Shown here one piece after another: positions 26,731 through 45,941 of a stretch of 61,686 bases of DNA (position 1 is its first letter; every line of letters starts with the position of its first letter). Position numbers and translations under genes: made by a program. The stretch comes from Candidatus Omnitrophota bacterium. Its GTDB lineage: Bacteria > Omnitrophota > Gorgyraeia > Duberdicusellales > 4484-171. Under the pieces are notes generated by a model. The model did not search any database and had not been told where the DNA came from. It saw only the letters and a program-made list of their open reading frames with translations. The stretch lies in NCBI GenBank assembly GCA_043823745.1, contig JBDRAN010000012.1:1-61686 (forward strand), given 5' to 3'.

Positions 26731-28350
26731 ATGAAATTTTCTCTTGGATATAATCACGATATCGGAATGGTGGCGCTTCTTGAGCGCTACCGCGCGCATA
26801 TCGAAGCGCTTTATTTCCCGGCGCCGGGGCGCCTTATCGGCTCCGGCAGGCACCTTGATCAGGATAATCGTTATGAAACGCAAATCCCCGAGCTTATCGC
26901 GGCATGTCAAAAACTCGATATCCGCAGTCAGCTTCTTTTGAACGCAACATGCGAGGGCCGTGATGGCCTGGCCAAGAATTTTTTTTCTCCCCTCGTTACG
27001 TACGTTAAGGATTTACGTGACCGGGGGCTTACCACTATTGTGGTTACCAACCCTCTCTATATCGAGCAATTCAAAAAGTGTATTCCCGGATTAGTTGTTG
27101 AGGCGTCGGTCAACTGTTATATGCGTACGCCGGAGCACGCTGTTTATCTTAAAAATTTAGGCGCAGACATCCTTACGATTGACCGGGATATTAATCGGGA
27201 TATTTCTCTTATTCGAAAGATAAAAGAGGCCACCGGGTTGCCCTTGCGTCTGATGCTTAACGAAGGGTGCGTGCGTAACTGTCCTTTTCGTAATCTTCAT
27301 TATAACTATATCGCGCATGGAGGAATACCTCCGCATGAGGCGCTTAGGGGTATTTGTCTTGATAAATTTTGCATGAAGATATACCGGAAGAATCCGGAAA
27401 AAATATTCGCTATTCCTTTTGTGCTCCCCGAAGATGTCAGGCGTTACAAAGGGCTGGTTGATTTTTATAAACTTACGACCAGGATTTTTTCTACCAAGCA
27501 GCTTGAAGCATGTCTTAAGGCGTATATTTCCGGCACGTTCACAGGGAACCTGCTTACGATTATTGATAGTCCCGGCTTGGCTGCGTTTGAATATGTTGAT
27601 AGCGCGTACCTTGTAAAGAAGAAATTTTTCAAACGAATGCTTTCCTGCGATGGCGTCTGCCGCCGGTGCGGGTATTGCGCGCGGCTTCTTTCACGGGCGG
27701 CAGTTCTTAATCGTGAATATCTCCCAGAAACGGTCCGCGCGTCTCAGGCGCTTCAGGCGATACAGGTTTATCGAAGAGCTCGTAAGTCACAAGGCTTCGA
27801 TAGCGCATTGCAGATAAACGTAGGCAGAGCCTCTATGGACGCGGGGCTCTACAAAAAGGCGATACGAGCGTTTAAGAATGTTATTGTGCGTAATCCCGGC
27901 GAGGCCGAGGCGTATCTTCTTTTAAGTTCCTGTTACGAGAAGAGTGCTCAAATCAAGGAGGCATTTCGGGTGTATCATGAGGCGCTTAAGCGTTTACCGC
28001 AGGCCCGGCCGCTTTATGTGGGGCTCGCGCGCCTTTATTTTGCCATGCGGGATTATGATGCCGTTATAAAAAATATTCAGAGAGCGCTTGATATTCCGGG
28101 CCAGGAGCATATACCCCGGTTATATTTTATGCTCGGTATTTCCTATCAGAAGACGCGGTGCTACAAAAAAGCTCTGCGATTTTTTAACAAGCTGCAGAAA
28201 TATCCACCGGTTGACCCCGAAGTTTACGCTCATCTTTCGCAGTGTTATCGCGCGCTCGGAGAGGTTAGGCGCGCAAAAGATACGCTTGCGCGTGGGTCGG
28301 CATTGCGCGACAATAACGAGACATCTGCGTTGACGCGGCACGCCGCATGA
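26731..28350 (+). CDS. Peptidase U32-family (Fe-S) protein with C-terminal TPR repeats
   Basis: GSGR, LLNATC, EASVN, DRDINRD, NEGCxxxCP..xH, PED, CxxxCxxCxxC; TPR-like helices in the last ~190 aa. Confidence 0.8.
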   Translation: MKFSLGYNHDIGMVALLERYRAHIEALYFPAPGRLIGSGRHLDQDNRYETQIPELIAACQKLDIRSQLLLNATCEGRDGLAKNFFSPLVTYVKDLRDRGLTTIVVTNPLYIEQFKKCIPGLVVEASVNCYMRTPEHAVYLKNLGADILTIDRDINRDISLIRKIKEATGLPLRLMLNEGCVRNCPFRNLHYNYIAHGGIPPHEALRGICLDKFCMKIYRKNPEKIFAIPFVLPEDVRRYKGLVDFYKLTTRIFSTKQLEACLKAYISGTFTGNLLTIIDSPGLAAFEYVDSAYLVKKKFFKRMLSCDGVCRRCGYCARLLSRAAVLNREYLPETVRASQALQAIQVYRRARKSQGFDSALQINVGRASMDAGLYKKAIRAFKNVIVRNPGEAEAYLLLSSCYEKSAQIKEAFRVYHEALKRLPQARPLYVGLARLYFAMRDYDAVIKNIQRALDIPGQEHIPRLYFMLGISYQKTRCYKKALRFFNKLQKYPPVDPEVYAHLSQCYRALGEVRRAKDTLARGSALRDNNETSALTRHAA

Positions 28351-28445
28351 GGGTGACGCATGTTGCGAGAAAATATGTGTACGAGTGTTCTTGATTCCAT
28401 GTTTGTGTGTGGTATGATACAATTGAATGGGTTCAAGGAGGTGCT

Positions 28446-29210
28446 ATGAGAGTGATAGGTTTTTTTATCGTTTGCATCTTAAGTATCGGAAGCGCTTTTT
28501 TTTGTTTTGCAGAGTGTTCTGGTGGCGGATGCGTTGAAAGCGCCGCGGATGAGTGGGTCTTCAACGAAACAAATGCTTATTGTAATGTTTTACCCCGGCC
28601 GGCAGCGAGTTGGTTCGCGAAAGCAGGGGTCAGCGAAGCTTCGCTTCGTTGGGATTTATCTAATTTTTACGATGGTAACTTCTTTCTTTTGAGTAAGCTC
28701 CGGGCAGGGATTGCGTCAGGAGAGGCATTGACCGGAACTCCCCAGGAGCGCGCGCAGTGGCAGCAGGTGATTCAGCAGGCGCAGGTATTACCGTTTCCCT
28801 GGAGGACCGCGGGTATTGCCCGGCTTTCAGGCGGCCGAGCCCGTCTTGTTACTGATGAGGATGGGTTTGCCTCAATTGGACAGGAGCTGATTCTTAAAAA
28901 TAAATACAGTGTTCTTTTGACTTTTAACTATACTGCCGTTCAGGCAAGCAGTAATGATATGCTTGAGGTGGTGGCTATTTTTCCGCCTGCCGTAGGAGAA
29001 ACGGGTGTATCAGAGGAAGTCATTCTTAGTTCGCATCGCTTGGCCCGGCTTTCCGAGCTTGAAGAGGTGTCGATACCGGTTTTTAAAAATAAGAGTTTCG
29101 AGAGAGCGTTTGGCTCGGCCGGAACACGTCGGGTGGAGATCGCCGTGCGGATTAAAGGAAATGCTCAAAAGGCCGCCACCGTTGATTTCGGTAATTTTAG
29201 TATAGCGTAG
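28446..29210 (+). CDS. Secreted hypothetical protein, paralog of 36114-36797
   Basis: GGAGG RBS, signal peptide; PWRTAG, ASIGQELIL and ATVDFG align with PWRARG, ASLSQDIKL and ATVRLD. Confidence 0.7.
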   Translation: MRVIGFFIVCILSIGSAFFCFAECSGGGCVESAADEWVFNETNAYCNVLPRPAASWFAKAGVSEASLRWDLSNFYDGNFFLLSKLRAGIASGEALTGTPQERAQWQQVIQQAQVLPFPWRTAGIARLSGGRARLVTDEDGFASIGQELILKNKYSVLLTFNYTAVQASSNDMLEVVAIFPPAVGETGVSEEVILSSHRLARLSELEEVSIPVFKNKSFERAFGSAGTRRVEIAVRIKGNAQKAATVDFGNFSIA

Positions 29211-29331
29211 GAGTATCCGTATCTCGCGCACCGGGGAAATAAAAATAATTGACTCTATGCTCGGAGGGTGTACAATAACAGTGATGTTTTCGGGTGGTAT
29301 AATCAATAATGATATTAAAAAAGGAGGAGAA

Positions 29332-29787
29332 ATGAGAAGCTGGTATTTTAGATTGGGGCTCATTTTCCTAGTAACCGCTAGCTTTAGTGGTGTGGTGGCT
29401 GCGGCAAGCGAAACGATTACGATAAGCACGTATTATCCTGCCCCCTTCGGTGTATATAAGCAGATGAAAGTTATGCCTACCCAGACTGCATATATGGTTC
29501 TTGGGGATGACCCGAATAATTCGCGTAATCCTGTCATAAGCCTTGTTGACGCGGATGCAACGGCGGCCGCCGGGGCGGGTACGTTACGCCCCTCGATTAC
29601 GTTTCAGAATTCCGTATCTACCGCCGCTGTTGATTTTCGTATTGCACAATTCGGTGATAATGATTTACGTATTATCGGAGGAACGACTACCTTCGTGAAT
29701 AATGGGGGTAATTACGGAAGGATTAGAGCGGGCGAACTTTGGATTTGCAGCGGTCTTGCTACCCCCACCAACATTGTTCCTGATTGA
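29332..29787 (+). CDS. Secreted 'TISTYYPAP' motif protein, paralog of 36886-37302
   Basis: AGGAGG RBS, signal peptide, ETITISTYYPAPFGVYKQM, GDNDLRIIGGTTTF. Confidence 0.75.
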   Translation: MRSWYFRLGLIFLVTASFSGVVAAASETITISTYYPAPFGVYKQMKVMPTQTAYMVLGDDPNNSRNPVISLVDADATAAAGAGTLRPSITFQNSVSTAAVDFRIAQFGDNDLRIIGGTTTFVNNGGNYGRIRAGELWICSGLATPTNIVPD

Positions 29788-29801
29788 CGAGTGGATATAT
29801 C

Positions 29802-30203
29802 ATGACAACAAAAGGCGGCATCATAGAAGAAGGGAAGGATAGCGTCAAATTGGCAGTTAATTGCGAAATGTACCCTCTTCAAAGCGTTTACGCGGCAGCG
29901 TATGTTTTTTTGGATAAAGCGTATGTGTATCTTGATAAAGAATCAAAGGATACAATCAGTGTATGGCTGTTCCGGAAAAACAAAAAAGACAATCTTCGAA
30001 CATTCGGCATGGATTTCTACAACGAGCTTTTAAATTATGCGCATTACTTTAGCAGTCTTAAGGCGAACGCCGAGGCGATTAAGCTCCTGATGCAACGGGC
30101 ACTTTTTTCCGCTTCCCCGTCGCTTGCGCTTGAAGCGGGGAAGAAAGAGATAGAGGGCCTTGCGCAGGAGCTTACCGATAAAAAAGCGCGTAACGGGCGA
30201 TGA
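29802..30203 (+). CDS. hxsD: His-Xaa-Ser system protein HxsD
   Basis: YPLQSVYAAAYVFLDKAYVYLD...DFYNELLNY...ALF matches the HxsD pattern; HxsB and HxS precursor are nearby. Confidence 0.8.
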   Translation: MTTKGGIIEEGKDSVKLAVNCEMYPLQSVYAAAYVFLDKAYVYLDKESKDTISVWLFRKNKKDNLRTFGMDFYNELLNYAHYFSSLKANAEAIKLLMQRALFSASPSLALEAGKKEIEGLAQELTDKKARNGR

Positions 30204-30415
30204 TGTTCTTAAAGAAAACCGGTAAGAAGATATTTATCAAGCTCCACAAGGAGTTATATGACCGGAATGTTATTGAACGGGTCAAGCGCCAGGAGCCCGG
30301 CATTCTCGGTGTGGTACATAGCGACGCCGCGCATTATCTTGTTGAGATGAGGACAAAACAGAGACGCGATTACCTTGATTTTTTAAATTATCTTATCTAT
30401 ATGGCGCGCGCATAG
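30200..30415 (+). CDS. Small HxsD-like protein
   Basis: 71 aa, coupled to hxsD; IKLHKELYD...DFLNYLI echoes the HxsD layout. Confidence 0.55.
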   Translation: MMFLKKTGKKIFIKLHKELYDRNVIERVKRQEPGILGVVHSDAAHYLVEMRTKQRRDYLDFLNYLIYMARA

Positions 30416-30475: not shown

Positions 30476-30889
30476 ATGAGTAAACCGAAAGAAAAAAAAC
30501 ACTTTAAACCCGTGGCCCGGAGTATCAAGAACTTCCTTAAAGATGAAGATGGTTTCGTTACAAAAAGCAGCATTCTTAAAATTAGCTTAGGGACAGTCGC
30601 TTCCATGGGAATCCTTAGCTCGGCATTTGCGGATTATAATATAAGCCCTATTCGTGTCTCTGATGTCTGGGTTAATACTAACTTTGCTAATTTTCACACC
30701 AACAGTGTCGGGCTTGCCGCGCTCCCTGCCCCTTATGCTGCTCAATTTCCTGAATGTCAACGTATGCTTCATACTAATACGACCGCTCACTTAAGCCATA
30801 GTTCGCATGATTTCCATATGAACGTACGCGGACGGCTTGACGCTAAGGGGTGGGTTGGTAAGATCGTCTACAACGGCCCGTTACTTTAA
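30476..30889 (+). CDS. Putative RiPP-like precursor 1: Flp-pilin-like leader plus His-Xaa-Ser/His-Xaa-Asn core
   Basis: AGGAGG RBS; leader IKNFLKDEDG|FVTKSSILKISLGTVASMGILSS; core HTN, HTN, HLSHSSHDFHMN. Confidence 0.8.
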   Translation: MSKPKEKKHFKPVARSIKNFLKDEDGFVTKSSILKISLGTVASMGILSSAFADYNISPIRVSDVWVNTNFANFHTNSVGLAALPAPYAAQFPECQRMLHTNTTAHLSHSSHDFHMNVRGRLDAKGWVGKIVYNGPLL

Positions 30890-30909
30890 GCAGCATAGTT
30901 TCTGCCTAT

Positions 30910-31722
30910 ATGCGAGGTTTAAAGGCGTTCGGCCACCAATATCAAAAGGGTATTAGATTATTTTCTATTGCAGTCGTGTTTATCGTGGTGACGGTTAGTT
31001 TTTCCGTTGCGGATGCCCAAGAAAATAGCAATACTCCTTCCTTCCTGCCGGGAAAAAATTCCGATGATAGTTTCCAGCGTAAGATAGCCTTCGCTAAAGA
31101 TGTCTTGCAGAAGGCGGGATACCTCGAGATCCTCGAGGTGTATCGCGCGGTTAGAGAAGAGGATACATCTCGGTGCGCATCACCCCAGGCGGTAACCCTT
31201 GCCAACGATCTGCTTGCCTTACGCTATGCCGGAGAGAATCGTTGCGGCAGCATCAAAAATGTTCTTTTCCGCCAGATGTGCGAAGCTGCAAACGCTGACA
31301 GTTGCGATGCGGCAGGTCCTTTAAAAAATTTCTGCTCCGGGGTGCGCGCAAGCGATCCCGTAAGACTTATGCGTGAGCTTTCAGGCGGTGAATTTTTGAA
31401 AGCGCTTGGCGTGCAATTGCCTATCACCGAGAACACCGTTTTATTCGGGCTCTCAATATATTATGGATTTAAGCATTACAGTCCTGTCGCTTGCGAGCGC
31501 TTTTTGAATGACGCGCGTCTTCCGTTGTCCTCCAAGGTTTCCTGCCAGCTTCTTTTCGCTCAGGATTTTAATAGTCAGTATGATTCGCTTGTTAATGATC
31601 TCGCTCTTTTTATGGTTTCGCGCCTGGCGCCACAGGAAGGTGCTTGCGAACAGATACAGAATGGGCGGGTGAAAAAGGCGTGCTTGAACAAGGCGATTAA
31701 AGACTTGGGCGATATCTGGTAA
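30910..31722 (+). CDS. Secreted cysteine-rich hypothetical protein
   Basis: Signal peptide; repeated C-x2-I-x-N-x6-C units (CGSIKNVLFRQMC, CEQIQNGRVKKAC). Confidence 0.7.
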   Translation: MRGLKAFGHQYQKGIRLFSIAVVFIVVTVSFSVADAQENSNTPSFLPGKNSDDSFQRKIAFAKDVLQKAGYLEILEVYRAVREEDTSRCASPQAVTLANDLLALRYAGENRCGSIKNVLFRQMCEAANADSCDAAGPLKNFCSGVRASDPVRLMRELSGGEFLKALGVQLPITENTVLFGLSIYYGFKHYSPVACERFLNDARLPLSSKVSCQLLFAQDFNSQYDSLVNDLALFMVSRLAPQEGACEQIQNGRVKKACLNKAIKDLGDIW

Positions 31723-31726
31723 TTTT

Positions 31727-32581
31727 TTAGCGAAACATTTTGAAGAGCGTTTCCGGAAAACCCGCATAGGTAAGGAGCGCTCCCAGGAACATAAAAGGCG
31801 CCAGGGGCACACGTACGGGCTTTTTGCTTTGGAGCCCTATCGCGGCGTTGAGAATATAGAAACCGATAGAATAGAGGAGTGTTATGCGCATAAAGGCTAT
31901 AATATTTCCGGGTTCAAAGAAGCGTGGCATCGTACAGTAGCGCAGCATGAGTCCCCCGATACCAAGAACAAGGATAAGGAGTTTGTAGCGGATTACGCTG
32001 ATACCCTGGAATATGACGGCATATGAAATAAAAAGAATTACAACGTTAAGGAAAGGGTTGGGGGGAAGTGGTAGAAGTTTTAAGGCCGGCGGCACGATCC
32101 AGGTGATGCTTGCAATGATCATGATTGTCCTTCCAAAATAGAGCATGGTTTTTTTTGATATCAATTGCTTGAAGAACGTAGTTTTATTCTTGATTATATC
32201 GTTCCCCAGCGAAGGAACCAGCCCCAGAAGACTGACAAGAAACGTATTAAGGAAAAGCGCCAGGCAGGGGAGCGGCACTACCGATTGATTGGCTGCGGAG
32301 GGGACCAGGAGCAGGGAATAGGTGACAAAGAGCTTTGCGTCTCCTGCTTTCCAGGCACGGGCAAGATAAAGTATGAACCCGATACCAAGCCCGACGAGAG
32401 GATTCAGAACAATGCGGGGTGTCCAGGGGATAGAGCCAAGCGCCATGCCGACACCGTACCCGAGAATTCCGGCTGTGCCGAGCGCGCACAGGTGCCTGTT
32501 GCGTATTTTTTTTATGGCGATGTCGGTAGTTATGGTAAGCGCCCCGGTTACAAGAAGCACAATTAAAAAATATATATTCAT
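31727..32581 (-). CDS. A24 family prepilin peptidase without methylase domain
   Basis: Catalytic aspartates in TTDIAIKKIRN and AGDAKL; C-terminal RVPLAPFMFLG; multi-TM. Confidence 0.88.
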   Translation of the reverse strand: MNIYFLIVLLVTGALTITTDIAIKKIRNRHLCALGTAGILGYGVGMALGSIPWTPRIVLNPLVGLGIGFILYLARAWKAGDAKLFVTYSLLLVPSAANQSVVPLPCLALFLNTFLVSLLGLVPSLGNDIIKNKTTFFKQLISKKTMLYFGRTIMIIASITWIVPPALKLLPLPPNPFLNVVILFISYAVIFQGISVIRYKLLILVLGIGGLMLRYCTMPRFFEPGNIIAFMRITLLYSIGFYILNAAIGLQSKKPVRVPLAPFMFLGALLTYAGFPETLFKMFR

Positions 32582-32662
32582 GGTATTTTTTGTTATTATA
32601 GCATATCGGGCTCAACGAGCAGTATTTTTTTCTGATGCTTCCGCGGCGAGGGTGAAGGCTCT

Positions 32663-33661
32663 ATGAGTAAATTTACGATACGGAGGTGTTTATCGGGTGA
32701 TCTTTCTAGCCTGGTTGGATTTTTCCGGCGCATGAAAGCCGCGTACGATGTTAATTTCCTGCCGCAGGATAAAGATGCGTTTTTGGAAAAATATTATTGG
32801 CCGGACGCGGAAGAAAAATTTAATTATTATCTTCTGCATAATCGTGATGGCGCAATCGTCGGCGGCACCGGATATGTCCCTTTTAAGGGTCTTTTTTGCC
32901 GGAAACCGCTCTCCGGGTTTGTGGCAACGGATAGCATCATCGACCCGGCCTGGCGCCGGAAGCTCCCCGGGCTCGTCCCTTTATTTGCGCGTACGTATGA
33001 GCGCATGGTGCGCGGCGAAAAGCTATTTCCATTGGCCTGCCCCGCTTCAGAGACGGTTGCGGAAAGTTTCAAGCGAGTGCGCTGGAGCCAATTTACCTGG
33101 ATTTACAAGCTGTATAGTCCGGTTGTAGCCAGGGTTACCCCGCACCTGGCGGCAGCGGGGCTTTGCATTGAGCGGATTGAATGTTTTGATAAGTCGTTTG
33201 AAGAGTTTTTTAAAATGATCGCGTCGGACTACGATTTCCTGATGCACGCCGATCGGGAATTTCTTAATCAAAAATATTGCGGCAATACCCGGGGCCCGTA
33301 TGTCATCCTTGCCGCGCATATGAAGCGTAAACTTTCCGGTTACCTGGTATGCCTGATACGCGACTGCGACATTGAAATCGTCGACGTCACGATCGACATA
33401 CGTTTGCCGCACCTTATCCTTTTCTTGATGTATGCGGCATTTTCGTATTGCCCCCGCCGGGATATTGCGATAACAACTTGTTATGTCAGCAATAAACGTT
33501 ATTTTGAAATCTTGCGTTCAATGGGCTTTTCCTGTTGCTGGGAGGTTGAATGTTTATTTTTTAAACCCGTGGCATTATTCCACCCGGGTTTTGCCGCCGC
33601 AATGGAGCAGTCTGATATGTCAACCTATCATTGCAACGGTTTTACGCAGCAGGCATATTGA
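32663..33661 (+). CDS. Tandem-GNAT acyltransferase 1
   Basis: GFVATDSIIDPAWR, YDFLMHADREFLNQKY, IEIVDV; paralog of 39442-40452. Confidence 0.72.
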   Translation: MSKFTIRRCLSGDLSSLVGFFRRMKAAYDVNFLPQDKDAFLEKYYWPDAEEKFNYYLLHNRDGAIVGGTGYVPFKGLFCRKPLSGFVATDSIIDPAWRRKLPGLVPLFARTYERMVRGEKLFPLACPASETVAESFKRVRWSQFTWIYKLYSPVVARVTPHLAAAGLCIERIECFDKSFEEFFKMIASDYDFLMHADREFLNQKYCGNTRGPYVILAAHMKRKLSGYLVCLIRDCDIEIVDVTIDIRLPHLILFLMYAAFSYCPRRDIAITTCYVSNKRYFEILRSMGFSCCWEVECLFFKPVALFHPGFAAAMEQSDMSTYHCNGFTQQAY

Positions 33662-33721
33662 TGCACGTAATAAGCGCGCAATCATTTTAGTGGATTTTTT
33701 TTGAAGGGTGTGTATAGTAAT

Positions 33722-34612
33722 ATGGCTATGCCGACGGTGGTAACCGGAATATCTTTTGTCTCTGTTAAAACCCTGCCGCAGGTCGCGGATATTGTCGAAT
33801 GCAGCCGCCGCCTCCTGGTTGATCGAGGTGCCGTCATTACCCCGCAGGCGTCCCGCCGCTACGGTTTTTTTCTTGGAACAACATTCAGTAATTTTGCTAT
33901 CCGTAAAGCTAACACTGAAAAGTATTTTTCTCGGGGTGTCCGGCCCATCAACCCCGCCGATTTCCCCAAAGGTTTAATTTCATATCTGGGCGGCGAGTCA
34001 TGCACCGCGCTGGGTATCAAGGGATTTAACATTACCTTTTCAAGCGGTGTTTCTTCAGGCGTTGACGCGCTTATGCAAGGAGTGTATTTTGCCGCGCGGC
34101 ATAAGGGCAATAGGGCGCTGGTGCTTACGCTGCATGAAGCTTTAAAGTCAAACGCGCGTATCGGTTTTTCGGGAATAAGCGGTATTATGGTTGAGGCCGC
34201 GCCTCTTTGTGAGCGTTCCTATGCCGAGATTATGGGATTTAAGTCAGTCTTTGAAAAAGCAGGAGATTGTGAAGGATTACAAAAGCTTATCACGGCGGCT
34301 GTAACGCAGTACCGCCTCCATGAAGCTTCCTTGATGGTTGCCTGTAGCGGCCGATCACGTGGCTCTATAGGATCCCGGCTCTTTGAGCGGATACGTGCAT
34401 CATATCCTATGGTAGAAACGATCAAGTCACCGGTACGTGGCGGGATTTCTGAATTGCTGCGGATCGTAAAGAAAAAAATATGGCTCAAGGAAAAGTATAT
34501 TTTGTTCTCGCAGCTCGGGGAAAACAGCAATAGCGGTTGCGTTGTGCTGCGCGTATCGAAAAGAGGAGGATATCCCGATGAAAAAAAATTCTACCAAAAA
34601 AAGTGTGCGTAA
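33722..34612 (+). CDS. Ketosynthase-like partner (chain-length-factor-like, no catalytic Cys)
   Basis: YGFFLGT, INPADFP, LGIKGFNITFSSGVSSGVDAL where the active-site Cys is absent, YAEIMG; precedes ACP and KS. Confidence 0.72.
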   Translation: MAMPTVVTGISFVSVKTLPQVADIVECSRRLLVDRGAVITPQASRRYGFFLGTTFSNFAIRKANTEKYFSRGVRPINPADFPKGLISYLGGESCTALGIKGFNITFSSGVSSGVDALMQGVYFAARHKGNRALVLTLHEALKSNARIGFSGISGIMVEAAPLCERSYAEIMGFKSVFEKAGDCEGLQKLITAAVTQYRLHEASLMVACSGRSRGSIGSRLFERIRASYPMVETIKSPVRGGISELLRIVKKKIWLKEKYILFSQLGENSNSGCVVLRVSKRGGYPDEKKFYQKKCA

Positions 34613-34895
34613 GAAAACCAAATCCGCTCATTCCGCGCCCCCGGCAAGCGGGAACATTAGAGACCAGGCTATTGAAATTATCAGCAATCTTGCGAAGCTG
34701 CCGAAGGATAAAATGCTGCAGTATAATCGGGAGAACTTTACCGATGTAGGTCTTGATTCTTTTACACTGGTTGAAATTGTATTTTCTATCGAGAACACGT
34801 TTGACATTGATATTCCGCAGGATAGTTTACCCGGTATCAAAAATCTTGATGATTTGATTTCACTTATTGAGGAGCTTGTTAAAAAACGTGGCTGA
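34578..34895 (+). CDS. Acyl carrier protein
   Basis: GLDSFTLVEIVFSIENTFDIDI phosphopantetheine site; GAGGAGG RBS. Confidence 0.92.
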   Translation: MKKNSTKKSVRKKTKSAHSAPPASGNIRDQAIEIISNLAKLPKDKMLQYNRENFTDVGLDSFTLVEIVFSIENTFDIDIPQDSLPGIKNLDDLISLIEELVKKRG

Positions 34896-36039
34896 ACGGG
34901 TTGTGGTGACAGGTCTGGGCGTTGTTTCTTCGCTGGGCGTTACCGTCGAGGTATTTTGGAAGAACCTTATTGCAGGGGCTTCAGGGATGAGTCCTATCGA
35001 GGCGTTTGCGACCGGGCACCTGGAACGCCGCGTCGGAGGAGAAATAAAAAAGTATCAGATTCCTGCAGGCACTCATCATCTGCCCCGGAGCCATCAATTT
35101 GCAATCGATGCATGCGCGAAGGCTCTGGCTGACGCGGGCCTGAGCTACCCGGCGCATTGTGATGTCGCCTTAGGGAGTATTGTCGCAGGACTCGAGTTTC
35201 TTGAAAAAAAACACAAGAGCTTTAAAAATTACCCGCTATATATGCTTGCGGCTAACGTTATAGAGATGCTTACGGTGCGCGGCGCCGCCTTTACGGTGTC
35301 CGGAGCCTGCGCCGCGGGAAACTACGCGGTAGGCTTGGCGTATGAGCGCATTAAGCGCGCAGAGGCAGAGGTGATTCTTGCCGGGGGCGCTGACTATTTT
35401 TCTGAAGGAACATTCATCGGTCTTTATAAAGTTTTTTCACTCGCGCCGGATATATGTCAGCCGTTTGATAAAAATCGTAAGGGCTTGATCCCGGCGGAGG
35501 GTGCGGGAGTACTTGTTCTTGAGTCGCTTTCAAGCGCCCGCAGGCGGGGCGCGCGTATTTACGCGGAAGTTCTAGGCTATGGAGCAAGCACCGATGCCTA
35601 TCACCCGCTCATTCCCTTGCAGGAAGGCATTTATGGGTGCATGGAGGATGCCTTGCGCGCATGCGGCGTCAGCGGCAGTGATATCGATTATATTAGCGCG
35701 CATGGTACGGGCACGGTTCCTAATGACAAAGCGGAATGTCAAGCAATACGCAAACTTTTTGGCAAAGCGCGTTCTAAAAAAATACCCGTAAGCTCAATCA
35801 AATCGATGCTCGGCCATGCGATGGGGGCGGCAAGCGCGATTGAGTCGATTGCCTGCTGTATGGCTATTTCCCGTGGAATACTCCCACCAACGATCAATTA
35901 TAAAACTCGTGATCCTGAGTGTGACCTTGATTGTGTGCCCAATACCGCGCGCGCTTATCGGGCTGATATTATCCTTAACAATGCCTTTGGGTTTGGCGGG
36001 ATGAATTGCTCTGTTGTTCTGGGACGTTGGAAAAATTAA
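34888..36039 (+). CDS. Beta-ketoacyl-ACP synthase (FabF/KAS II-like)
   Basis: RVVVTGLG, GACAAG (Cys), AHGTGT, KSMLGHAMG, NAFGFGGMN. Confidence 0.95.
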   Translation: MAERVVVTGLGVVSSLGVTVEVFWKNLIAGASGMSPIEAFATGHLERRVGGEIKKYQIPAGTHHLPRSHQFAIDACAKALADAGLSYPAHCDVALGSIVAGLEFLEKKHKSFKNYPLYMLAANVIEMLTVRGAAFTVSGACAAGNYAVGLAYERIKRAEAEVILAGGADYFSEGTFIGLYKVFSLAPDICQPFDKNRKGLIPAEGAGVLVLESLSSARRRGARIYAEVLGYGASTDAYHPLIPLQEGIYGCMEDALRACGVSGSDIDYISAHGTGTVPNDKAECQAIRKLFGKARSKKIPVSSIKSMLGHAMGAASAIESIACCMAISRGILPPTINYKTRDPECDLDCVPNTARAYRADIILNNAFGFGGMNCSVVLGRWKN

Positions 36040-36076
36040 TAGGTACGGTGTTTGGCCGGCAGGATACGTTGTTTTC

Positions 36077-36104
36077 TTGACAAGAAACGGTTATGCGATA
36101 TACT
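36077..36104 (+). promoter_or_regulatory. Sigma70-like promoter for the second cluster module
   Basis: TTGACA-N16-TATACT. Confidence 0.55.
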
Positions 36105-36113
36105 AAAAATATC

Positions 36114-36797
36114 ATGAAAATGCAGAGGAGAAAAGTCATTACCGCTGGTTTTTTACTTGCGCTGTTTCCGGTATGGTGCTATGCGCAGACTATTACCATA
36201 AAAGGATCAACCGAGAAAAAACCCCTTACCACGGCTCAGATAGGCGCGTCCTACGAAGTTTCCGATAATTTTCAAAACGGTGATTTTCAGCAATCCGCTC
36301 AGTATGAAACGGCAGTTGCGTCAAACCCCCTGTTTAATCCTCCCTATGCGTTGCGTGCGAACGAACAAGCCCTGGTTGATTTTTTTAAGAAGCCGCTCCT
36401 GTTGCATCCTTGGCGTGCACGAGGCGATGTGAAGCTGGTGCATGAGGGGGATAACATTCTTGTCCAGCTTAATCTTGCCAAGGGGGTGGAAGCATCATTG
36501 TCTCAGGATATTAAATTGAGAGATAAAAATGCTCGTATTGAATTTGATCTTTTTGGTACGGGTGGCGCACCGTCGGGGGTATTTGAGGTAGCGATTCTTG
36601 ATGCATCGGGCCGCTTCCCGATCGCCACATACAGCGCATCTACGATCTCATCCCAGAAACATTGCGTTATAAATCTAAGCGGCAATAAAAATCTTATGGC
36701 TCGCAAAGCCGGCGATACGCTCACGGTTGAGTTTTCCTTACGGGGCAAAGAGCAAGATTCGGCAACCGTGCGTCTTGACTCTGTAGTGATTATGTAG
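36114..36797 (+). CDS. Secreted hypothetical protein, paralog of 28446-29210
   Basis: Signal peptide ending CYA; C-terminal beta-rich domain shared with the paralog. Confidence 0.7.
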   Translation: MKMQRRKVITAGFLLALFPVWCYAQTITIKGSTEKKPLTTAQIGASYEVSDNFQNGDFQQSAQYETAVASNPLFNPPYALRANEQALVDFFKKPLLLHPWRARGDVKLVHEGDNILVQLNLAKGVEASLSQDIKLRDKNARIEFDLFGTGGAPSGVFEVAILDASGRFPIATYSASTISSQKHCVINLSGNKNLMARKAGDTLTVEFSLRGKEQDSATVRLDSVVIM

Positions 36798-36885
36798 CAA
36801 TAGTGAAGGGCTCTTACGCGCCGCCGGCGTGCGTATAGGTATTCTTAAAAAAGAGATATTCGTTCTCGAAAAGAAGGAGGAGTGT

Positions 36886-37302
36886 ATGAGGAAAAATTTT
36901 TTTGTTGCTCTTATGTGTGCCGCGGTGGTGTCTATCGGTGCGAGTGCGTTTTGCGCCGATGAAACAATAACGATATCCACCTATTATCCGGCTCCGTATG
37001 GTGTGTATAAAAAAATGCAAATTATGGATACCCAGGGAGCCAACATAACCTTGTACAGTAGTGACCCCGTTACCGCCGGTAACCCTACGTTAGCCTTAAG
37101 CGATAGTAATGCAGCCGGGGGGTTGATCCCTTCAATTACGTTTGATAATGATCCAGCAGCCAGCCCTGACTTTCGCATATCACTTCGTGGCGATAACGAT
37201 CTTCGGGTGCAGGGGGGCACGACGACATTTACCGATGATGCCGGAAACTATGCGCCCGTGCGTACCAGTAAAATTATTATTTGTTCCGGAGCCGCAACGT
37301 AA
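36886..37302 (+). CDS. Secreted 'TISTYYPAP' motif protein, paralog of 29332-29787
   Basis: AAGGAGG RBS; ETITISTYYPAPYGVYKKM, GDNDLRVQGGTTTF, ICSG. Confidence 0.75.
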   Translation: MRKNFFVALMCAAVVSIGASAFCADETITISTYYPAPYGVYKKMQIMDTQGANITLYSSDPVTAGNPTLALSDSNAAGGLIPSITFDNDPAASPDFRISLRGDNDLRVQGGTTTFTDDAGNYAPVRTSKIIICSGAAT

Positions 37303-37363
37303 TTACTATGGTGTATCCCGTATGTATCGAAAAAACACTATTGCGTAAGGGGTGGGCGTCGCA

Positions 37364-38764
37364 ATGACTGATCGCGTAACACTTCCTTTTAACTCGCGCG
37401 TGATACGTAACAGGTATCTTGTGTCCAATGCCCTTGGAAACTGGGATTTTCTGGAGAAGAACGAATTTCAGGCTTTTCATGGATTGCGTCTTAAACAGGG
37501 AACACCTCTGTTTAGGCGGCTTTATGAGAAAGGTTTGTTGGCGGATGAGCATAACATAAAAACTCTGGTCGATGACTACCGGAATTTAAATGCTAATATT
37601 TTCCATGACACCAGATTACATATTGCCGTTGTGACAACCCGGTGCAATTTACGCTGCTGCTATTGCCAGGCACATACCGGCGCGTACCAGGATATGGACA
37701 TTACGGTCGCAAGCCGTGTTTTAAAGAATATCTTTGACGTTAAAAGCCCCTGCGTTACGTTAGAGTTCCAGGGTGGTGAGCCGCTGCTTAATTGGGAGAC
37801 GGTGCGCTTTCTCATCGAGCAGGCTACAAAGATCAATAACGGCGTAAAACAGCTGCAGTTTTCCCTGACGAGTAATCTAACCTTGCTTGATGATGAGAAA
37901 ATGAAATTTCTCACGGACCACGGCGTCGGAATGTGCGGTTCTTTAGATGGCCCCCGGCACATTCATGATCATAATCGAACGTTTGCCAAGGGCGCGGGAA
38001 GTTACGATACCGTAGTCAAAAACATTCATAGATTTGAAACTGCGTTTGGCGCCAAAATAGGTCTTCTCCCCACCGTTACTAAGCACTCATTACCGTATTA
38101 TAAAGACATCGTTGATGAGTATGTGCGTCTTGGTCAAAGCAGCATTGCGCTTCGGCCGGTCAATCAGCTGGGGCATGCCTGTGCGCAGTGGAATACGCTT
38201 GGCTATACCGCTGAGGAGTTCAGTGAGTTCTACCGCAAGGCCCTTGAGTATATTCTTTCCTTAAATAAAAAAGGGATTTTCATTCGCGAGCGAATGGCTG
38301 CGATTATGCTTGAAAAAGTGCTCAATAAAAAAGATCCCGGATATGTTGAGCTGATGAATCCCTGCGGCGCGGGCCGGGGCCAGATCGTGTATATGCCGGA
38401 TGGAAGTTGTTACCCGTGCGATGAGTCTCGGATGGTGGGTGATGAGATGTTTAAGCTTGGCAATATTCTCGATGAGGATTACGAGGACCTGATGCACAAG
38501 GAAAATCTCCTGCACCTTCTTGAGTCTTCCCTGATGAACCTGTGGGATTATAATTCTGCGTTTGCGCCCTGGATGGGGACCTGCCCGGTTGTTAATTACG
38601 CGGCGCAGAAGAACTTTGTTCCTAAAATCTGGTGTTCAGCGGTCCATAAAATCTATACGGCTCAATTTAACTATCTTTTTGAAAAAATGGAGCAAAGCGA
38701 GGAAAATACAAAGATTTTTAGGCAATGGATAAAAAAGGAGGGTGTTTATGAATCAAAAAAATAA
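37364..38764 (+). CDS. hxsB: His-Xaa-Ser system radical SAM maturase HxsB-like
   Basis: LPFN..YLVSN N-terminus, LHIAVVTTRCNLRCCYCQA, EFQGGEPLLN, SLDGP, GYVELMNPCGAG, YPCDESRM. Confidence 0.85.
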   Translation: MTDRVTLPFNSRVIRNRYLVSNALGNWDFLEKNEFQAFHGLRLKQGTPLFRRLYEKGLLADEHNIKTLVDDYRNLNANIFHDTRLHIAVVTTRCNLRCCYCQAHTGAYQDMDITVASRVLKNIFDVKSPCVTLEFQGGEPLLNWETVRFLIEQATKINNGVKQLQFSLTSNLTLLDDEKMKFLTDHGVGMCGSLDGPRHIHDHNRTFAKGAGSYDTVVKNIHRFETAFGAKIGLLPTVTKHSLPYYKDIVDEYVRLGQSSIALRPVNQLGHACAQWNTLGYTAEEFSEFYRKALEYILSLNKKGIFIRERMAAIMLEKVLNKKDPGYVELMNPCGAGRGQIVYMPDGSCYPCDESRMVGDEMFKLGNILDEDYEDLMHKENLLHLLESSLMNLWDYNSAFAPWMGTCPVVNYAAQKNFVPKIWCSAVHKIYTAQFNYLFEKMEQSEENTKIFRQWIKKEGVYESKK

Positions 38765-39179
38765 GAAGCGATTTGATACCGTCGGGAAAACAATCAAGAG
38801 CTTCATGCGAGATGAGGATGGGTTTGTCGATAAGGGAAAAATCTTAAAAATCAGTTTGGGTACCGTTGCGACATTGGGTATCCTTTCCTCGACATTCAAT
38901 AGCCAGGCTTTAGGGCATGCTAACTACCGACATCAGAATTATGCCGGCCCCAGTGATCCCCAAATTACACACATGAATGGGCAGCTGAATCTTACCAGCC
39001 ACGCCAATACCGTGACGCTGCAGAATATTACGGGGATGACGGGCTGTCAGGAGATAGTGCATAGTAATGCGAATAATGTATTGAAGACATATGTCTTAAA
39101 TGGGGGGATTAACGGTACGGCGACGTATCGCGACTTCTATAATCAATGGGGCGAGGGTGGCAAAATATACGAAGTATAA
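38748..39179 (+). CDS. Putative RiPP-like precursor 2: Flp-pilin-like leader plus five His-Xaa-Asn motifs
   Basis: AAGGAGG RBS inside the hxsB end; leader IKSFMRDEDG|FVDKGKILKISLGTVATLGILSS; HAN, HQN, HMN, HAN, HSN. Confidence 0.8.
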   Translation: MNQKNKKRFDTVGKTIKSFMRDEDGFVDKGKILKISLGTVATLGILSSTFNSQALGHANYRHQNYAGPSDPQITHMNGQLNLTSHANTVTLQNITGMTGCQEIVHSNANNVLKTYVLNGGINGTATYRDFYNQWGEGGKIYEV

Positions 39180-39441
39180 AAAATCGGCTGCCGGTGTATC
39201 GCACGAATCAATTTTTTGATACGATCGTCCGAGTATAGAAACCGCCCGGGAATACGTTGTTGATTTTTCTCCATGGATGCGTGCCTAAAACATGGCACAC
39301 ATGAGTGCGGCTCGGTAGGTTCCTGGAGTGCGTATATTTTCCCGCTGACAATTATCATGTGTCCGGTCTGTCCGCTGCCGGCACGTAACATCACATTAAG
39401 TTTGATTCCTTTATTTTTTCGAAGATTTCTACCCATGGTGT

Positions 39442-40452
39442 ATGCCAACGAACTTAAAGTTTCACGTATGTCGATGCAGCGTCGATGATATCGATAATCT
39501 TGTTACGTTTGCCTCAAGGCTGGCGCATAAGAACATAGTTTTTTTACCCCGCTCCAAAGAACACTTCCTGCGTAAATATCTTAGTTATGGAGAAAAAACC
39601 GGAACGCTCAATCTTTTTGCTATCAAGCGAGAAGATGGAGATATTGTTGGTGTGAGCGGCTTTGTTCCGTTTAAGGGATTTTTTGGCAACAAAATTTTCC
39701 AGGGCTTTATCGGCACTGACGCGGCGATTGACCCCCACTACACCGTCCGCTATCCCGGCCTGGCCGCAATGCTTGCAATGAGTTATGAATCGATGGTACG
39801 TGTCGAGAAGCGGTTTCCCTTAATTTTCCCTAACGATAAAAAGGTCCTTAAAGCGTTTCGGGGTGTGCGCTGGGGAGAGTTTTCTCGCCTGGAGGAGTGG
39901 GTAAATCCTTTCGCGATGCAGCTTATCCCTGATTTTGGCACCGGATCAATCGAAGTCTCGCGCATAGAGCATTTTGAATCTTCAGACCAGCGGTTTTTTA
40001 AACGCGTGGCTTCGCAGTATGATTTTCTGATGCAGGCGGATATTGATCTTTTAAATTGGCGGTATTTTGACAATCCATATGCGGCACAGTCTATCGTCGT
40101 GGCTGCGCGCCGGCAGGGCGAGCTTGCCGGTTACATGGTGGTGCAGGGCGTGGGGGTAGACATCTGCATTGTCGATACGGTTATCGATTTGGAACACCCC
40201 TCCGCGCTTTTACTGCTGCTTTTTAAAACCTTGGAATACTTTGACCGTACCGCGAGCGCGCGTATCCTGTGCTATATGAGCCACCAGCGGTATATTGAAA
40301 TTTTAAGTAAAATAGGATTTTTTAGACAGCATATCTTAAAATGCCTTTTTTTTAAGGCAGGATTGCTTTTTAGCAACACTTCACATGACTTGATGCATGC
40401 TGGTACTTCTCAGCGTTACCATTTTAATGGGTTTGCCCCGCATTTGTGCTAA
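39442..40452 (+). CDS. Tandem-GNAT acyltransferase 2
   Basis: GFIGTDAAIDP, YDFLMQADIDLLNWRYFDNP, YHFNGF; paralog of 32663-33661. Confidence 0.72.
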   Translation: MPTNLKFHVCRCSVDDIDNLVTFASRLAHKNIVFLPRSKEHFLRKYLSYGEKTGTLNLFAIKREDGDIVGVSGFVPFKGFFGNKIFQGFIGTDAAIDPHYTVRYPGLAAMLAMSYESMVRVEKRFPLIFPNDKKVLKAFRGVRWGEFSRLEEWVNPFAMQLIPDFGTGSIEVSRIEHFESSDQRFFKRVASQYDFLMQADIDLLNWRYFDNPYAAQSIVVAARRQGELAGYMVVQGVGVDICIVDTVIDLEHPSALLLLLFKTLEYFDRTASARILCYMSHQRYIEILSKIGFFRQHILKCLFFKAGLLFSNTSHDLMHAGTSQRYHFNGFAPHLC

Positions 40453-40649: not shown

Positions 40650-40976
40650 ATGGTATACGTCTATATTTTAAAAAGTAAGAAAGATGCGAGCTATTATGTT
40701 GGTCAAACTGAGCATATTGTTGATAGATTATATAGACATAATACAGCGCAATCTGTATCAACAAAATTAAAGATACCTTGGGAATTAGTTTATCTGGAAG
40801 AATTTAACACGAGGCCACTCGCAGTTAAACGGGAACTGCAGATAAAGAAACAAAAGCGTAAAAAATATATAGAAAGATTAATCAAATCGGGGCGTGGCTC
40901 AGTTCGGCTAGAGCACTTGGTTTGGGACCAAGAAGTCGGTGGTTCAAATCCACTCGCCCCGACCAAAATTTCATGA
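40650..40976 (+). CDS. Small GIY-YIG nuclease family protein (ORF reads through tRNA-Pro)
   Basis: MVYVYILKS....YYVGQT....RL.RHN...PWELVYLEEF...A..RE..IKK. Confidence 0.88.
   Translation: MVYVYILKSKKDASYYVGQTEHIVDRLYRHNTAQSVSTKLKIPWELVYLEEFNTRPLAVKRELQIKKQKRKKYIERLIKSGRGSVRLEHLVWDQEVGGSNPLAPTKIS
40888..40965 (+). tRNA. tRNA-Pro(TGG)
   Basis: CGGGGCG acceptor, CTTGG-TTTGGGA-CCAAG, GTTCAAATC, ACCA. Confidence 0.96.
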
Positions 40977-44251: not shown

Positions 44252-44323
44252 GAAACAAACCAAGAGAGGCTATTTACAAGAGATCGATTTTGGTATATCA
44301 TAAAAAGGTAAAAAAAGGAAATT

Positions 44324-45898: not shown

Positions 45899-45941
45899 AT
45901 TATTACCCTCATGCGAACCGAGGCTCTTGTGAGCCACAAAA

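Follow-up and report, generated by a model that had tools for sequence, protein, structure and literature searches.

Two proteins encoded in the genome of a groundwater Omnitrophota bacterium share an N-terminus that resembles a prepilin leader and differ in what follows it, which raises the question of what such a leader does beside a radical SAM maturase and how it would be removed. Both genes lie in the stretch of 61,686 nucleotides that was analyzed here (the window; contig JBDRAN010000012.1). Our answer, which we hold to be probable though by no means secure, is that the two proteins (P1 and P2) are substrates of an Omnitrophota-specific Hxs variant, with a two-part leader that a dedicated A24 peptidase would cut after a conserved Gly.

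Two Precursors with a Common N-Terminus

P1 (30476-30889, + strand) is a 137-aa ORF with a leader at residues 1-52 and a His-rich core at residues 53-137 that includes HLSHSSHDFH. P2 (38742-39179, + strand) comprises 145 aa if translation starts at GTG and 143 aa if it starts at the ATG of 38748, and its gene overlaps the 3′ end of hxsB by 23 nt. The predicted cytoplasmic part of the P1 leader (30476-30553) consists of a Lys-rich stretch and F20-L-K-D-E-D-G26, and that of P2 (38742-38822) contains F21-M-R-D-E-D-G27, placing the candidate cuts after G26 and G27. A short hydrophobic segment follows in both, I36-A52 with an A-F-A end in P1 (30581-30631) and I37-F52 with the tail N-S-Q-A56 in P2 (38850-38909), so that candidate signal peptidase I sites, by the -3/-1 rule only, fall after A52 and A56. 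Such an anatomy fits the two-step processing that a sequence-only reading of this DNA had proposed as possible. The same reading had described similar leaders with divergent cores, and this was borne out, as the BLASTP alignment of P1 with P2 is confined to the N-termini (31/48 identities, E 1e-20) and the cores give no BLASTP alignment with each other. Relatives of the P1 core were found at 45, 41, 37, 32, and 28% identity, and the P2 core is an orphan among the approximately 250 family members collected. The motif F-x-[KR]-D-E-x-G occurs within the first 60 residues of only 2 of the 4354 six-frame ORFs of at least 80 aa in the genome, namely P1 and P2 (residue shuffles: mean 0.28, maximum 2), and a tblastn search of the source genome with the leader yields no third copy.

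A profile of the leader retrieved 64 cluster representatives at E ≤ 1e-3 in an exhaustive search and 125 in a word-indexed search, and all named members are hypothetical proteins of Omnitrophica/Omnitrophota. The family logo was built from 52 of the 64 after six long repeat proteins and six fragments were dropped. Numbered from the candidate cut, E-3 and G-1 are invariant (52/52) and D-4 nearly so (51/52), followed by K+9 (50), F-7 and K+4 (46 each), and G+11 (45), whereas F+1 is found in 33. Position +6 is N, T, K, or S in 48 of 52 members, Tyr not being among these four commonest residues. Absence of the Glu+5/Tyr+6 pair of Flp pilins, as had been pointed out, holds at +5 for the two precursors (Ser in P1, Gly in P2, neither acidic), but not for the family, in which +5 is acidic in 41/52. 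Nine polar residues (F-V-x-K-x-x-I-L-K) separate the Gly from an uncharged run that begins at +10 in 52/52 members and averages 16.3 aa with a mean Kyte-Doolittle hydropathy of 1.63. Small residues at -3/-1 after this run pass an A-x-A test in 52/52, a test of little weight since it is permissive in tails so rich in Ala, Ser, and Gly. In our reading of these sequences the N-terminus common to both precursors, about 52-56 residues long, would be a two-part leader, the first part running from the Lys-rich stretch to the Flp-type, prepilin-like F-x-K/R-D-E-D-G, and the second made of the nine-residue polar spacer, the short Gly/Ala/Ser-rich hydrophobic segment, and the small residues at -3/-1. 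Comparable modules of motif plus Gly-rich helix recur as internal repeats of unrelated repeat proteins, a setting in which no leader could be cut off, and this counts against the leader-cleavage reading.

The wider kinship of the leader is indicated by NCBIfam HxsA3 (NF038309), a model for a His-Xaa-Ser repeat protein, whose N-terminal positions 2-45 align with P1 (E 6e-6, 26 bits), P2 (E 9e-4, 18.9 bits), and, weakly, 50 of the 52 members. The best member reaches E 2e-12, but every score stays far under the 65-bit cut-off, and no member found bears the name HxsA3. The proposal that a pilin leader had been reused here as a RiPP leader is supported as regards the leader beside HxsB and an A24 peptidase but not as a local reuse, because this leader is common to the whole HxsA3-related family.

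Likeness to Flp Pilins

In hhalign the leader profile aligns with 22 Flp ORFs from Omnitrophota at a score of 21.4 (P 0.0022, probability 13%), placing leader Gly on Flp Gly and leader +5 on the Glu of Glu-Tyr. None of 200 column shuffles reached this score (mean 9.7, maximum 16.6), and as a yardstick, the score of Flp with the N-termini of type IVa pilins is 18.9. The leader itself scores 8.4 against type IVa pilin N-termini, a value met by 28 of 100 shuffles. The likeness to Flp is therefore real at the level of sequence profiles but modest, and we reject membership of the precursors in the Flp family, since the Pfam Flp_Fap model matches none of the 52 leader-family members at E ≤ 10. The claim of an Flp-like leader is upheld to this extent only. 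Across the phylum scan the same model matched no Hxs locus at E ≤ 0.001, and in the source genome it matched a single stretch at E ≤ 10, on another contig. The hydrophobic run of same-phylum Flp is also longer and stronger (about 20 aa, hydropathy 2.2-2.9) than that of the leader family, and the polar spacer would hold the scissile bond off the membrane edge, unlike in prepilins.

The A24-Like Peptidase and Its Association with HxsB

The peptidase reported near the precursors is indeed present, as a divergent A24-family aspartyl peptidase of 284 aa (31727-32581, - strand) with about nine hydrophobic segments and without a methyltransferase domain. Its match to Pfam Peptidase_A24 (PF01478; 18.6 bits, E 0.0026) lies below the curated cut-off of 26.5, and it matches no NCBIfam model. 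At E ≤ 0.1, however, PF01478 matches 17 of the 20 family members (best E 6.3e-7), and a clade-2 member scores 34.9 bits, above the cut-off. The candidate catalytic residues D20 (32522-32524, - strand) and D81 in W-K-A-G-D-A-K-L-F (32339-32341, - strand) are conserved in 38/39 and 39/39 locus ORFs, respectively, both adjoin Lys/Arg-rich loops, and W77, G80, and K83 are each found in 39/39. The source genome has two A24 matches in all, and its housekeeping PilD lies elsewhere, on contig C54, where the family profile does not match it.

We scanned a phylum sample of 301 genomes for the A24-like gene, HxsB, and the leader, which were present in 22, 22, and 21 genomes. Peptidase and HxsB occur together in 21 genomes, each alone in one, and neither in 278, counts that overstate independence as the sampled genomes are related to one another. 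In 17 of the 21 genomes with both, the peptidase gene shares a contig with HxsB or a precursor at a distance of no more than 10 kb, and in the sole genome with the peptidase but without HxsB (G240) the gene adjoins HxsC-like radical SAM genes. Flp matches above the Pfam cut-off occur in 16 genomes, none of which has the peptidase family. We also retrieved 38 loci through leader patterns alone and checked them afterwards, which amounts to the leader-profile check that the sequence-only reading had suggested; HxsB is present in 35 and the A24-like gene in 26, at 10-5121 nt from the precursor (median gap 2.5 kb) and on the opposite strand in 25 of the 26. The flank fetched for the remaining 12 loci contains no such gene. 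About half of these loci end less than 5 kb beyond the precursor on its downstream side, and four have about 10 kb there; five of the 12 come from four genomes, all of which carry an A24-like gene elsewhere. Leader homologs are thus found in association with A24. Tree distances of HxsB and peptidase correlate as well (Mantel r 0.86, 0/2000 permutations, 33 loci).

The Cassette and Its Proposed Pathway

HxsB (37352-38764, + strand, 470 aa) is a radical SAM/SPASM maturase that scores 412.8 bits on TIGR03978 (cut-off 370) and matches Pfam Radical_SAM and SPASM, its nearest solved relative being the SPASM maturase 5wgg (E 5e-26). An HxsD-like protein of 139 aa (29784-30203, +) reaches 35.7 bits on TIGR03976, below the cut-off of 50, and such a gene is conserved 5′ of HxsB, in 16 of the 20 locus stretches as well as most of the 38 loci. 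HxsC was found above cut-off in none of the 301 genomes, and in the source genome not even at E 1e-25. The other genes, all on the + strand, form two cassette copies that start with secreted proteins of 267 aa (28407-29210, relatives in four loci) and 234 aa (36093-36797), 22% identical to each other; the best promoter-like site, by consensus match only, lies at 36077-36104. A secreted protein with the ETITISTYYPAP motif (29257-29787, probable start 29332) is the first conserved gene of the cassette and has a paralog of 47% identity immediately 5′ of hxsB (36829-37302). A conserved 71-aa protein (30200-30415) is encoded in relatives between HxsD and HxsB, and a secreted Cys-containing protein of 270 aa (30910-31722), which matches no Pfam family, comes after the precursor in clade-1 loci. 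A GNAT-like acyltransferase of 332 aa (32663-33661; ESM Atlas feature score 0.97, TM 0.82-0.84 to Acetyltransf_9/GNAT clusters) is divergently oriented to the peptidase gene, an adjacency conserved in clade-1 loci, and 3′ of it follow a KS-like protein (33701-34612), an acyl carrier protein (34542-34895), and a ketosynthase (34867-36039) by Pfam and NCBIfam, conserved in seven loci. A second GNAT-like paralog of 336 aa, 38% identical to the first, comes after P2 (39442-40452).

In the pathway we propose, the His-rich core would be modified in the cytoplasm by HxsB with help of the HxsD-like protein, the hydrophobic segment would bring the precursor to the membrane, and the A24 peptidase would cut after G26 in P1 and G27 in P2 at the cytoplasmic face. 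The core would come to lie beyond the cytoplasm, where it may stay anchored through the leftover segment or be freed by signal peptidase I. The E. coli HXS system, taken as an analog, makes a role in the envelope likely and an antiphage function possible. Our full-text literature searches found no paper in which "prepilin peptidase" occurs together with either RiPP and leader peptide or radical SAM and precursor peptide, and a leader paired with its own divergent prepilin-type peptidase suggests an undescribed way to trim radical-SAM-modified peptides.

Which Explanation Fits Best?

The same N-terminus could be an extended Sec signal peptide trimmed by signal peptidase I alone after its A-x-A-like site, with K-x-L-K-x-F-x-K-D-E-D-G as a recognition sequence for HxsB/HxsD instead of a cleavage site; the A24-like protein would then cut a second candidate site (L-K-[IV]-[GS]↓L-G-T) beside the hydrophobic run, clear the leftover signal peptide, or act on another substrate. 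Leader motifs are commonly recognized by RiPP-type radical SAM/SPASM maturases, and the nearest solved relative of HxsB is the SPASM maturase 5wgg. The short and weak run with small residues after it looks like a signal-peptide h-region, K+9 and G+11 are well conserved too, and canonical HxsA carries an ordinary signal peptide (PMC13128918). Nevertheless, an invariant Gly after an Asp-Glu that is invariant or nearly so is the prepilin cleavage-site pattern and aligns with the Flp site, the A-x-A support counts for little, and it would go unexplained why an A24 peptidase with conserved catalytic Asp co-occurs almost exclusively with this system and is linked to it, so that we regard the Sec explanation as unlikely, though it deserves to be taken seriously.

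Less likely still is that the precursors are true filament subunits and not soluble peptides. They would then be His-rich minimal pilins or pseudopilins with radical SAM modifications, which a type IV filament machine with PilB- and PilC-like proteins would assemble or extrude after A24 cleavage. This idea draws on eight clade-2 loci (L094, L097, L098, L106, L110, L113, L115, and L117) with PilB-like and/or PilC-like genes within about 6 kb upstream of HxsD, mostly directly upstream (in L098, 620.7 bits on TIGR02538 and about 400 bits on GspF/PilC), where no canonical pilin ORF of the G-F-T-L-I-E type was found; a regex match in L113 was rejected as a spurious 42-aa ORF. In the source genome, pilin genes do lie 0.2-0.5 kb from a PilC-like gene (contigs C28, C34, and C64), and the frequencies of F+1 and acidic +5 in the logo agree with a pilin. 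However, the eight loci are species representatives of one clade and the adjacency may be a single ancestral event, no PilB/PilC-like genes were found near the locus of the window or near those of its clade, the segment is shorter and weaker than that of pilins and interrupted by Lys (+4 and +9), and the type IVa comparison stayed at shuffle level. Finally, the pilin-like leader and the position of the peptidase might coincide by chance, the enzyme serving Tad or type IV pilus systems, since the genome contains several loci for type IV pili and a Tad-like one on contig C4 but so few A24 matches. We consider this highly improbable, given that the family tracks HxsB in 21 of 22 genomes and not Flp, adjoins HxsC-like genes even in G240, and is linked in most of the independently fetched loci.

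Comparison with Known Systems

HXS (HxsABCD) has been described as an antiphage defense of Pseudomonadota, where 99.7% of the systems occur, 99.6% of them in the order D-B-C-A (Nat Commun 2026, PMC13128918). Both this system and that of Omnitrophota have the HxsB maturase and an HxsD-like protein. In both, the gene for a His-rich substrate comes directly after that of the maturase, and the substrate is processed at its N-terminus and bound for outside the cytoplasm, presumably so on the Omnitrophota side. The HXS substrate has a 22-residue signal peptide and a peptidoglycan-binding domain, whereas that of Omnitrophota has a prepilin-like leader, a dedicated A24 peptidase is added, and HxsC was not found at cut-off; GNAT, KS, and ACP genes are further additions in the clade of the window, as are PilB/PilC-like genes in another clade. 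In E. coli, processing of HxsA at its N-terminus requires HxsB, C, and D, which counts against the A24-cleavage reading, and neither "peptidase" nor "prepilin" appears in the part of the paper's text considered here (PMC13128918).

With Flp/Fap prepilins, which in the same phylum read L-L-K-D-E-S-G↓Q-T-M-V-E-Y, the leader family shares the cytoplasmic Lys-rich part and the hydrophobic-x-K/R-D-E-x-G end, but it has no Tyr at +6, a polar spacer before its shorter and weaker run, and a His-rich C-terminal core of 30-90 aa; the window contains no Tad genes. TadV/CpaA-type A24 peptidases share two conserved Asp and the missing methyltransferase domain with the enzyme at 31727-32581, whereas the Omnitrophota peptidase, at about 285 aa, has a long insert and was not found in bona fide Flp genomes. 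Dedicated leader peptidases are familiar from other RiPP pathways, for example those whose double-glycine leaders a C39 peptidase domain removes. Such pathways and the proposed one follow the same logic, with a conserved leader, a variable core, a maturase, and a co-encoded protease cutting after a conserved Gly, but the Omnitrophota protease would belong to another class, the intramembrane A24 aspartyl peptidases.

A conserved leader with divergent cores

The two putative precursors of the window, P1 (30476-30889, 137 aa) and P2 (38742-39179, 145 aa), can be aligned at their N-termini alone (31/48 identities, E 1e-20), and the motif F-x-[KR]-D-E-x-G is found within the first 60 residues of just two of the 4354 six-frame ORFs of at least 80 aa in the genome, namely P1 and P2, where shuffles lead one to expect 0.28. 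The P1 core has relatives at 28-45% identity and the P2 core has none among ~250 collected family members. Because only the N-termini align, the motif is restricted to this pair and the cores differ, we regard the conserved leader and variable core proposed in the sequence-only reading as confirmed, and with a maturase encoded alongside, the two ORFs have the make-up of RiPP-like precursors. tblastn of the window's genome revealed no third leader copy; a weak match at C13:53104, on another contig, belongs to a cupin-like ORF and was rejected. The P1 core contains H-L-S-H-S-S-H-D-F-H, that of P2 holds scattered H-A-N and H-S-N and nothing more of this kind, and many cores of the wider family are rich in His-x-Ser or His-x-Asn, many having clear repeats and many terminating in H-S-S-Y.

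A profile built from the P1 and P2 leaders matched 64 proteins at E<=1e-3 among 1.84 billion cluster representatives, and 52 of these were aligned after 12 had been set aside, half of them long repeat proteins and half fragments. P1 alone as query in a word-indexed homolog search returned itself and nothing else; the leader alignment returned 125 proteins, all the named ones being hypothetical proteins of Omnitrophica/Omnitrophota. No relative of the leader was found in viral contigs, plasmids held no match to leader or peptidase, and the leader has no sequence match among solved structures. Anchored on the Gly after which the cut is proposed, the family consensus reads K-x-L-K-x-F-x-K-D-E-D-G | F-V-S-K-E-x-I-L-K-[IV]-G-L-G-T. 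Before the cut, E-3 and G-1 are invariant (52/52), D-4 is found in 51/52 and F-7 in 46/52; after it, F+1 is kept in 33 members, K+4 in 46, an acidic residue at +5 in 41 and K+9 in 50, and at +6 48/52 members have N, T, K or S, the commonest four. P1 and P2, with Ser-Ser and Gly-Lys at +5/+6, are atypical for their family in missing the acidic +5. The HxsA3 model (NF038309) is matched by 50/52 members, every score lying under its cut-off of 65 bits; the scores of P1 (26 bits) and P2 (18.9 bits) come from the leader part alone, in weak alignments to model positions 2-45 (E 6e-6 and 9e-4).

Four Gln/Asn/Tyr-rich repeat proteins (P0042, P0063, P0068 and P0084) are also hit by this profile, with E values from 2e-8 to 7e-4. 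They contain 3-5 internal copies of N-F-Y-R-D-D-D-G-S-V-D-K-S-x-V-F, after each of which come a Gly/Ala-rich stretch and G-K-K, and the repeat proteins that share the leader motif have no clear Pfam family.

The HxsB-linked cassette

The maturase gene is HxsB (37352-38764), which scores 412.8 bits against TIGR03978 (cut-off 370). A putative substrate lies right beside it, as P2 overlaps its end; P1 is 6.5 kb away, at a site that HxsB occupies in related genomes. An HxsD-like gene (29784-30203) reaches 35.7 bits against TIGR03976 (cut-off 50; E 8e-9), covering profile positions 1-86 of 90, and its place upstream of HxsB is kept in relatives. For HxsC (TIGR03977, cut-off 267.9 bits), the best match in the window's genome is 48.6 bits and located elsewhere, and none of the 301 phylum genomes sampled has a match above the cut-off. 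Sub-threshold HxsC-like radical SAM genes (<=178 bits) adjoin an A24-like gene in more distant loci of four of these genomes (G240:C4:50680-64416 and loci of G248, G061 and G224), several of them standing in a row in G240. The sole PADLOC hit was HxsB, matched generically as a radical SAM protein to viperin models.

In close relatives the cassette runs as a secreted protein, the ETITISTYYPAP protein, HxsD, a 71-aa protein, HxsB and the precursor, followed by a secreted 270-aa protein, the peptidase (- strand), a GNAT-like gene, a KS-like gene, ACP and KS. An ESM Atlas search with the ETITISTYYPAP protein gave nothing informative. The window holds two old and complementary partial copies of this cassette, with paralogs in the regions 28407-30415 and 36093-37302: one copy has HxsD-like and peptidase genes without HxsB, and the other (36093-40452) retains HxsB, P2 and a GNAT paralog (39442-40452). 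Paralogs of the two copies are 22-47% identical, and no DNA similarity between the copies was found.

The GNAT-like gene, divergent from the peptidase gene, and the KS-like, ACP and KS genes that follow it (32663-36039) are conserved in 7 related loci, which suggests that the peptide is fatty-acylated by this set, perhaps at its new N-terminus. GNAT enzymes make known lipidated ribosomal peptides.

A second clade of loci shows a different order: HxsD, HxsB, precursor, two uncharacterized proteins, a second radical SAM gene that is not HxsC (- strand) and the peptidase (- strand). PilB-like and/or PilC-like genes stand within ~6 kb upstream in 8 of these loci (L094, L097, L098, L106, L110, L113, L115 and L117), in most of them directly upstream of HxsD-HxsB-precursor; the PilB-like ATPases have MshEN domains, and a coiled-coil protein usually accompanies the PilB- and/or PilC-like genes (e.g., L098:918-7800). 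None of the 8 loci contains a canonical pilin ORF, compared with the ordinary pilus loci of the window's own genome, where a pilin gene lies 0.2-0.5 kb from the PilC-like gene.

Several other features surround the cassette copies. Directly upstream, 26731-28350 encodes a 539-aa protein that has TPR repeats and whose N-terminus weakly resembles peptidase U32 (E 3e-4); weak relatives are present in 2/20 related locus stretches. Just after the cluster comes a tRNA-Pro gene (40888-40965), overlapped by a 108-aa ORF (40650-40976) that seems to start like a GIY-YIG nuclease and probably reads on into the tRNA. Beyond ~44 kb G+C falls from ~0.47 to ~0.39 (44000-61686), and this part encodes a trypsin-like peptidase (49238-50476) and an MMPL/RND-type transporter (52248-54548). 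All or part of the stretch occurs in 3 DNA sequencing runs of groundwater metagenomes (2 studies); no RNA run containing it is listed.

Association of leader, peptidase and HxsB

Of the 301 phylum genomes, 22 carry the peptidase family, 21 the leader and 22 HxsB; peptidase and HxsB coincide in 21 genomes, each is found alone in one, and 278 have neither. Neither these counts nor those from the loci below form sets of independent trials, because the genomes are related to one another. For 17 of the 21 genomes with both, HxsB or a precursor is found on the peptidase's contig no more than 10 kb away. In the genome with peptidase and no HxsB (G240) the gene adjoins the HxsC-like radical SAM genes, and in the genome with HxsB and no peptidase (G276) the contig with the HxsB locus starts ~1 kb past the precursor. 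The peptidase family was found in 0/16 genomes that have an above-cut-off Flp match.

A second sample, 38 loci of species-representative genomes, was gathered with leader patterns as the sole criterion; the patterns came from a 13-sequence subset and were narrow enough to favour close leaders. HxsB is present in 35, with the precursor at most 150 nt from it in 32. A peptidase gene is present in 26, separated from the precursor by 10-5121 nt (median 2.5 kb) and on the opposite strand in 25. In about half of the 12 loci without a peptidase gene, the sequence downstream of the precursor is no longer than 5 kb, and in all 4 genomes behind 5 of the 12 the gene is present elsewhere. The expectation that leader matches would lie beside HxsB and A24 is thereby borne out. 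Tree distances of HxsB and peptidase correlate (r 0.86; 0/2000 permutations), which shows a shared history, not a function.

The A24-like peptidase

The A24-like gene (31727-32581, - strand) scores 18.6 bits against PF01478, under the cut-off of 26.5. Its ~20 relatives, each of ~287 aa and the named ones from Omnitrophota, are called “prepilin peptidase” or CpaA in some sources; 17/20 match PF01478 at E<=0.1 (best E 6.3e-7), and a relative from the second clade, in L098, reaches 34.9 bits. A24 peptidases are characterized by two catalytic Asp on the cytoplasmic side, the second within a G-x-G-D-x-K-L-like motif. The corresponding D20 and D81 (W-K-A-G-D-A-K-L-F) are invariant in 20/20 aligned members and recur in 38/39 and 39/39 locus ORFs, respectively, and both adjoin Lys/Arg-rich loops. 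The peptidase profile has no sequence match among solved structures. The genome also encodes an ordinary PilD-type peptidase on contig C54, flanked by aroE-like and aroC-like genes, which the profile of the Hxs-linked family does not detect.

Likeness to Flp pilins

Flp pilins of the same phylum carry leaders such as L-L-K-D-E-S-G|Q-T-M-V-E-Y, and the family ends its leader in the same way, with Gly at -1 preceded by D-E-x. When the 52 Hxs leaders were compared by hhalign with 22 Flp ORFs of the phylum, a score of 21.4 (P 0.0022, probability 13%) was obtained in a register that puts Gly on Gly and +5 on the Glu of Glu-Tyr and superposes the hydrophobic runs. None of 200 column shuffles came up to it, their mean being 9.7 (SD 1.9) and their highest value 16.6; reversing the alignment gave 13.7. 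As a yardstick, Flp scores 18.9 against N-termini of type IVa pilins from the window's genome; Hxs leaders against the latter score 8.4, inside the shuffle range.

The resemblance to the Flp leader noted in the sequence-only reading therefore stands for the D-E-x-G end and the hhalign result, but not for membership in the family. PF04964 (Flp_Fap, gathering cut-off 32.2 bits) matches none of the 52 members at E<=10 and no Hxs locus in the 301 genomes at E<=0.001, and its sole match at E<=10 in a six-frame scan of the window's genome is on another contig. The Flp motif consists of Glu +5 and Tyr +6. Its absence, as claimed, holds for P1 and P2; family-wide, +5 is acidic in 41/52. A nine-residue polar spacer after Gly sets the Hxs leader apart from Flp: all 52 members have an uncharged run that begins at +10, with a mean of 16.3 aa and a hydropathy of 1.63, whereas the hydrophobic run of same-phylum Flp starts at +6 in 18/20 ORFs scored and measures ~20 aa with a hydropathy of 2.2-2.9. 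The window's contig holds no T2SSE/T2SSF match, Tad-like genes being on contig C4. With the profile never matched, and with the Glu+5/Tyr+6 pair, the run and the Tad context all at variance, Flp/Fap membership of the leader proteins was rejected.

The Tad-like locus (C4:1256-16237) comprises two TadB/C-like genes, CpaF-like ATPases and a Flp-like ORF with K-A-Q-S-T-L-E-Y-A-L-L-I (Pfam E 0.24); no A24 gene was detected in this locus.

Small residues occupy -3/-1 of the leader tail (P1, A-F-A; P2, S-Q-A), which fits a candidate signal-peptidase-I site by a test that is permissive. Because the D-E-x-G register is Flp-like, yet followed by the spacer, a weaker run and a small-residue tail, the leader looks like a hybrid, with a putative prepilin-type cytoplasmic part and cut site before a Sec-like hydrophobic segment and tail.

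Proposed processing and alternatives

The most economical reading, which we consider probable on sequence and gene context, is that the A24-like protein is the leader peptidase of this system and cuts after the invariant Gly. The peptidase would cleave the leader at the cytoplasmic face, after or alongside modification by HxsB, and export or anchoring of the core would then fall to the hydrophobic segment. Its main rival, which we hold to be rather unlikely, takes D-E-D-G as a recognition motif and leaves the trimming to signal peptidase I, for which the small-residue tail offers a candidate site. Against every model with a cleavage stand the failed Flp family membership and the occurrence of a similar motif with Gly-rich-helix modules as internal repeats in unrelated proteins.

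In a bolder alternative, which we hold to be unlikely, the precursors would be true filament subunits. Unlikely too is a combined arrangement in Omnitrophota, where HxsB-modified His-rich proteins would be handled as prepilins, cut by a dedicated A24 peptidase and, in at least one clade, assembled or extruded by a PilB/PilC-type motor. Hxs peptides would then be post-translationally cross-linked minimal pilins or pseudopilin cargo, and in the window's clade the neighbouring GNAT/ACP/KS set may also N-acylate the Phe that becomes their new N-terminus. The two machineries joined in this arrangement, radical-SAM maturase and prepilin handling, are not known to have been reported together. Full-text literature searches found no paper joining “prepilin peptidase” with RiPP and leader peptide, none joining it with radical SAM and precursor peptide, and none joining Omnitrophota, type IV pili and radical SAM.

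Should cleavage by the A24-like protein be confirmed, a new protease class would be added to the leader peptidases of ribosomal peptide pathways, and class III (pilin-type) signal peptides would have been co-opted for radical-SAM-modified proteins. The analysis also brings together a family of >100 proteins that lack annotation and their cassette of seven to twelve genes, in a phylum that is little studied and for the most part uncultured.

Comparison with the known HXS system

The function of Hxs was assigned only recently, as a block to phage DNA entry in E. coli. [quoted passage not shown] HxsB appears elsewhere as an annotated enzyme family, in passages that make no mention of a peptidase (PMC9062424). 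Unlike canonical HXS, the window's genome has no HxsC above the model cut-off. The Omnitrophota variant points to a concrete processing route for an Hxs effector, in which a dedicated prepilin-type intramembrane aspartyl peptidase would act on an invariant D-E-x-G leader.
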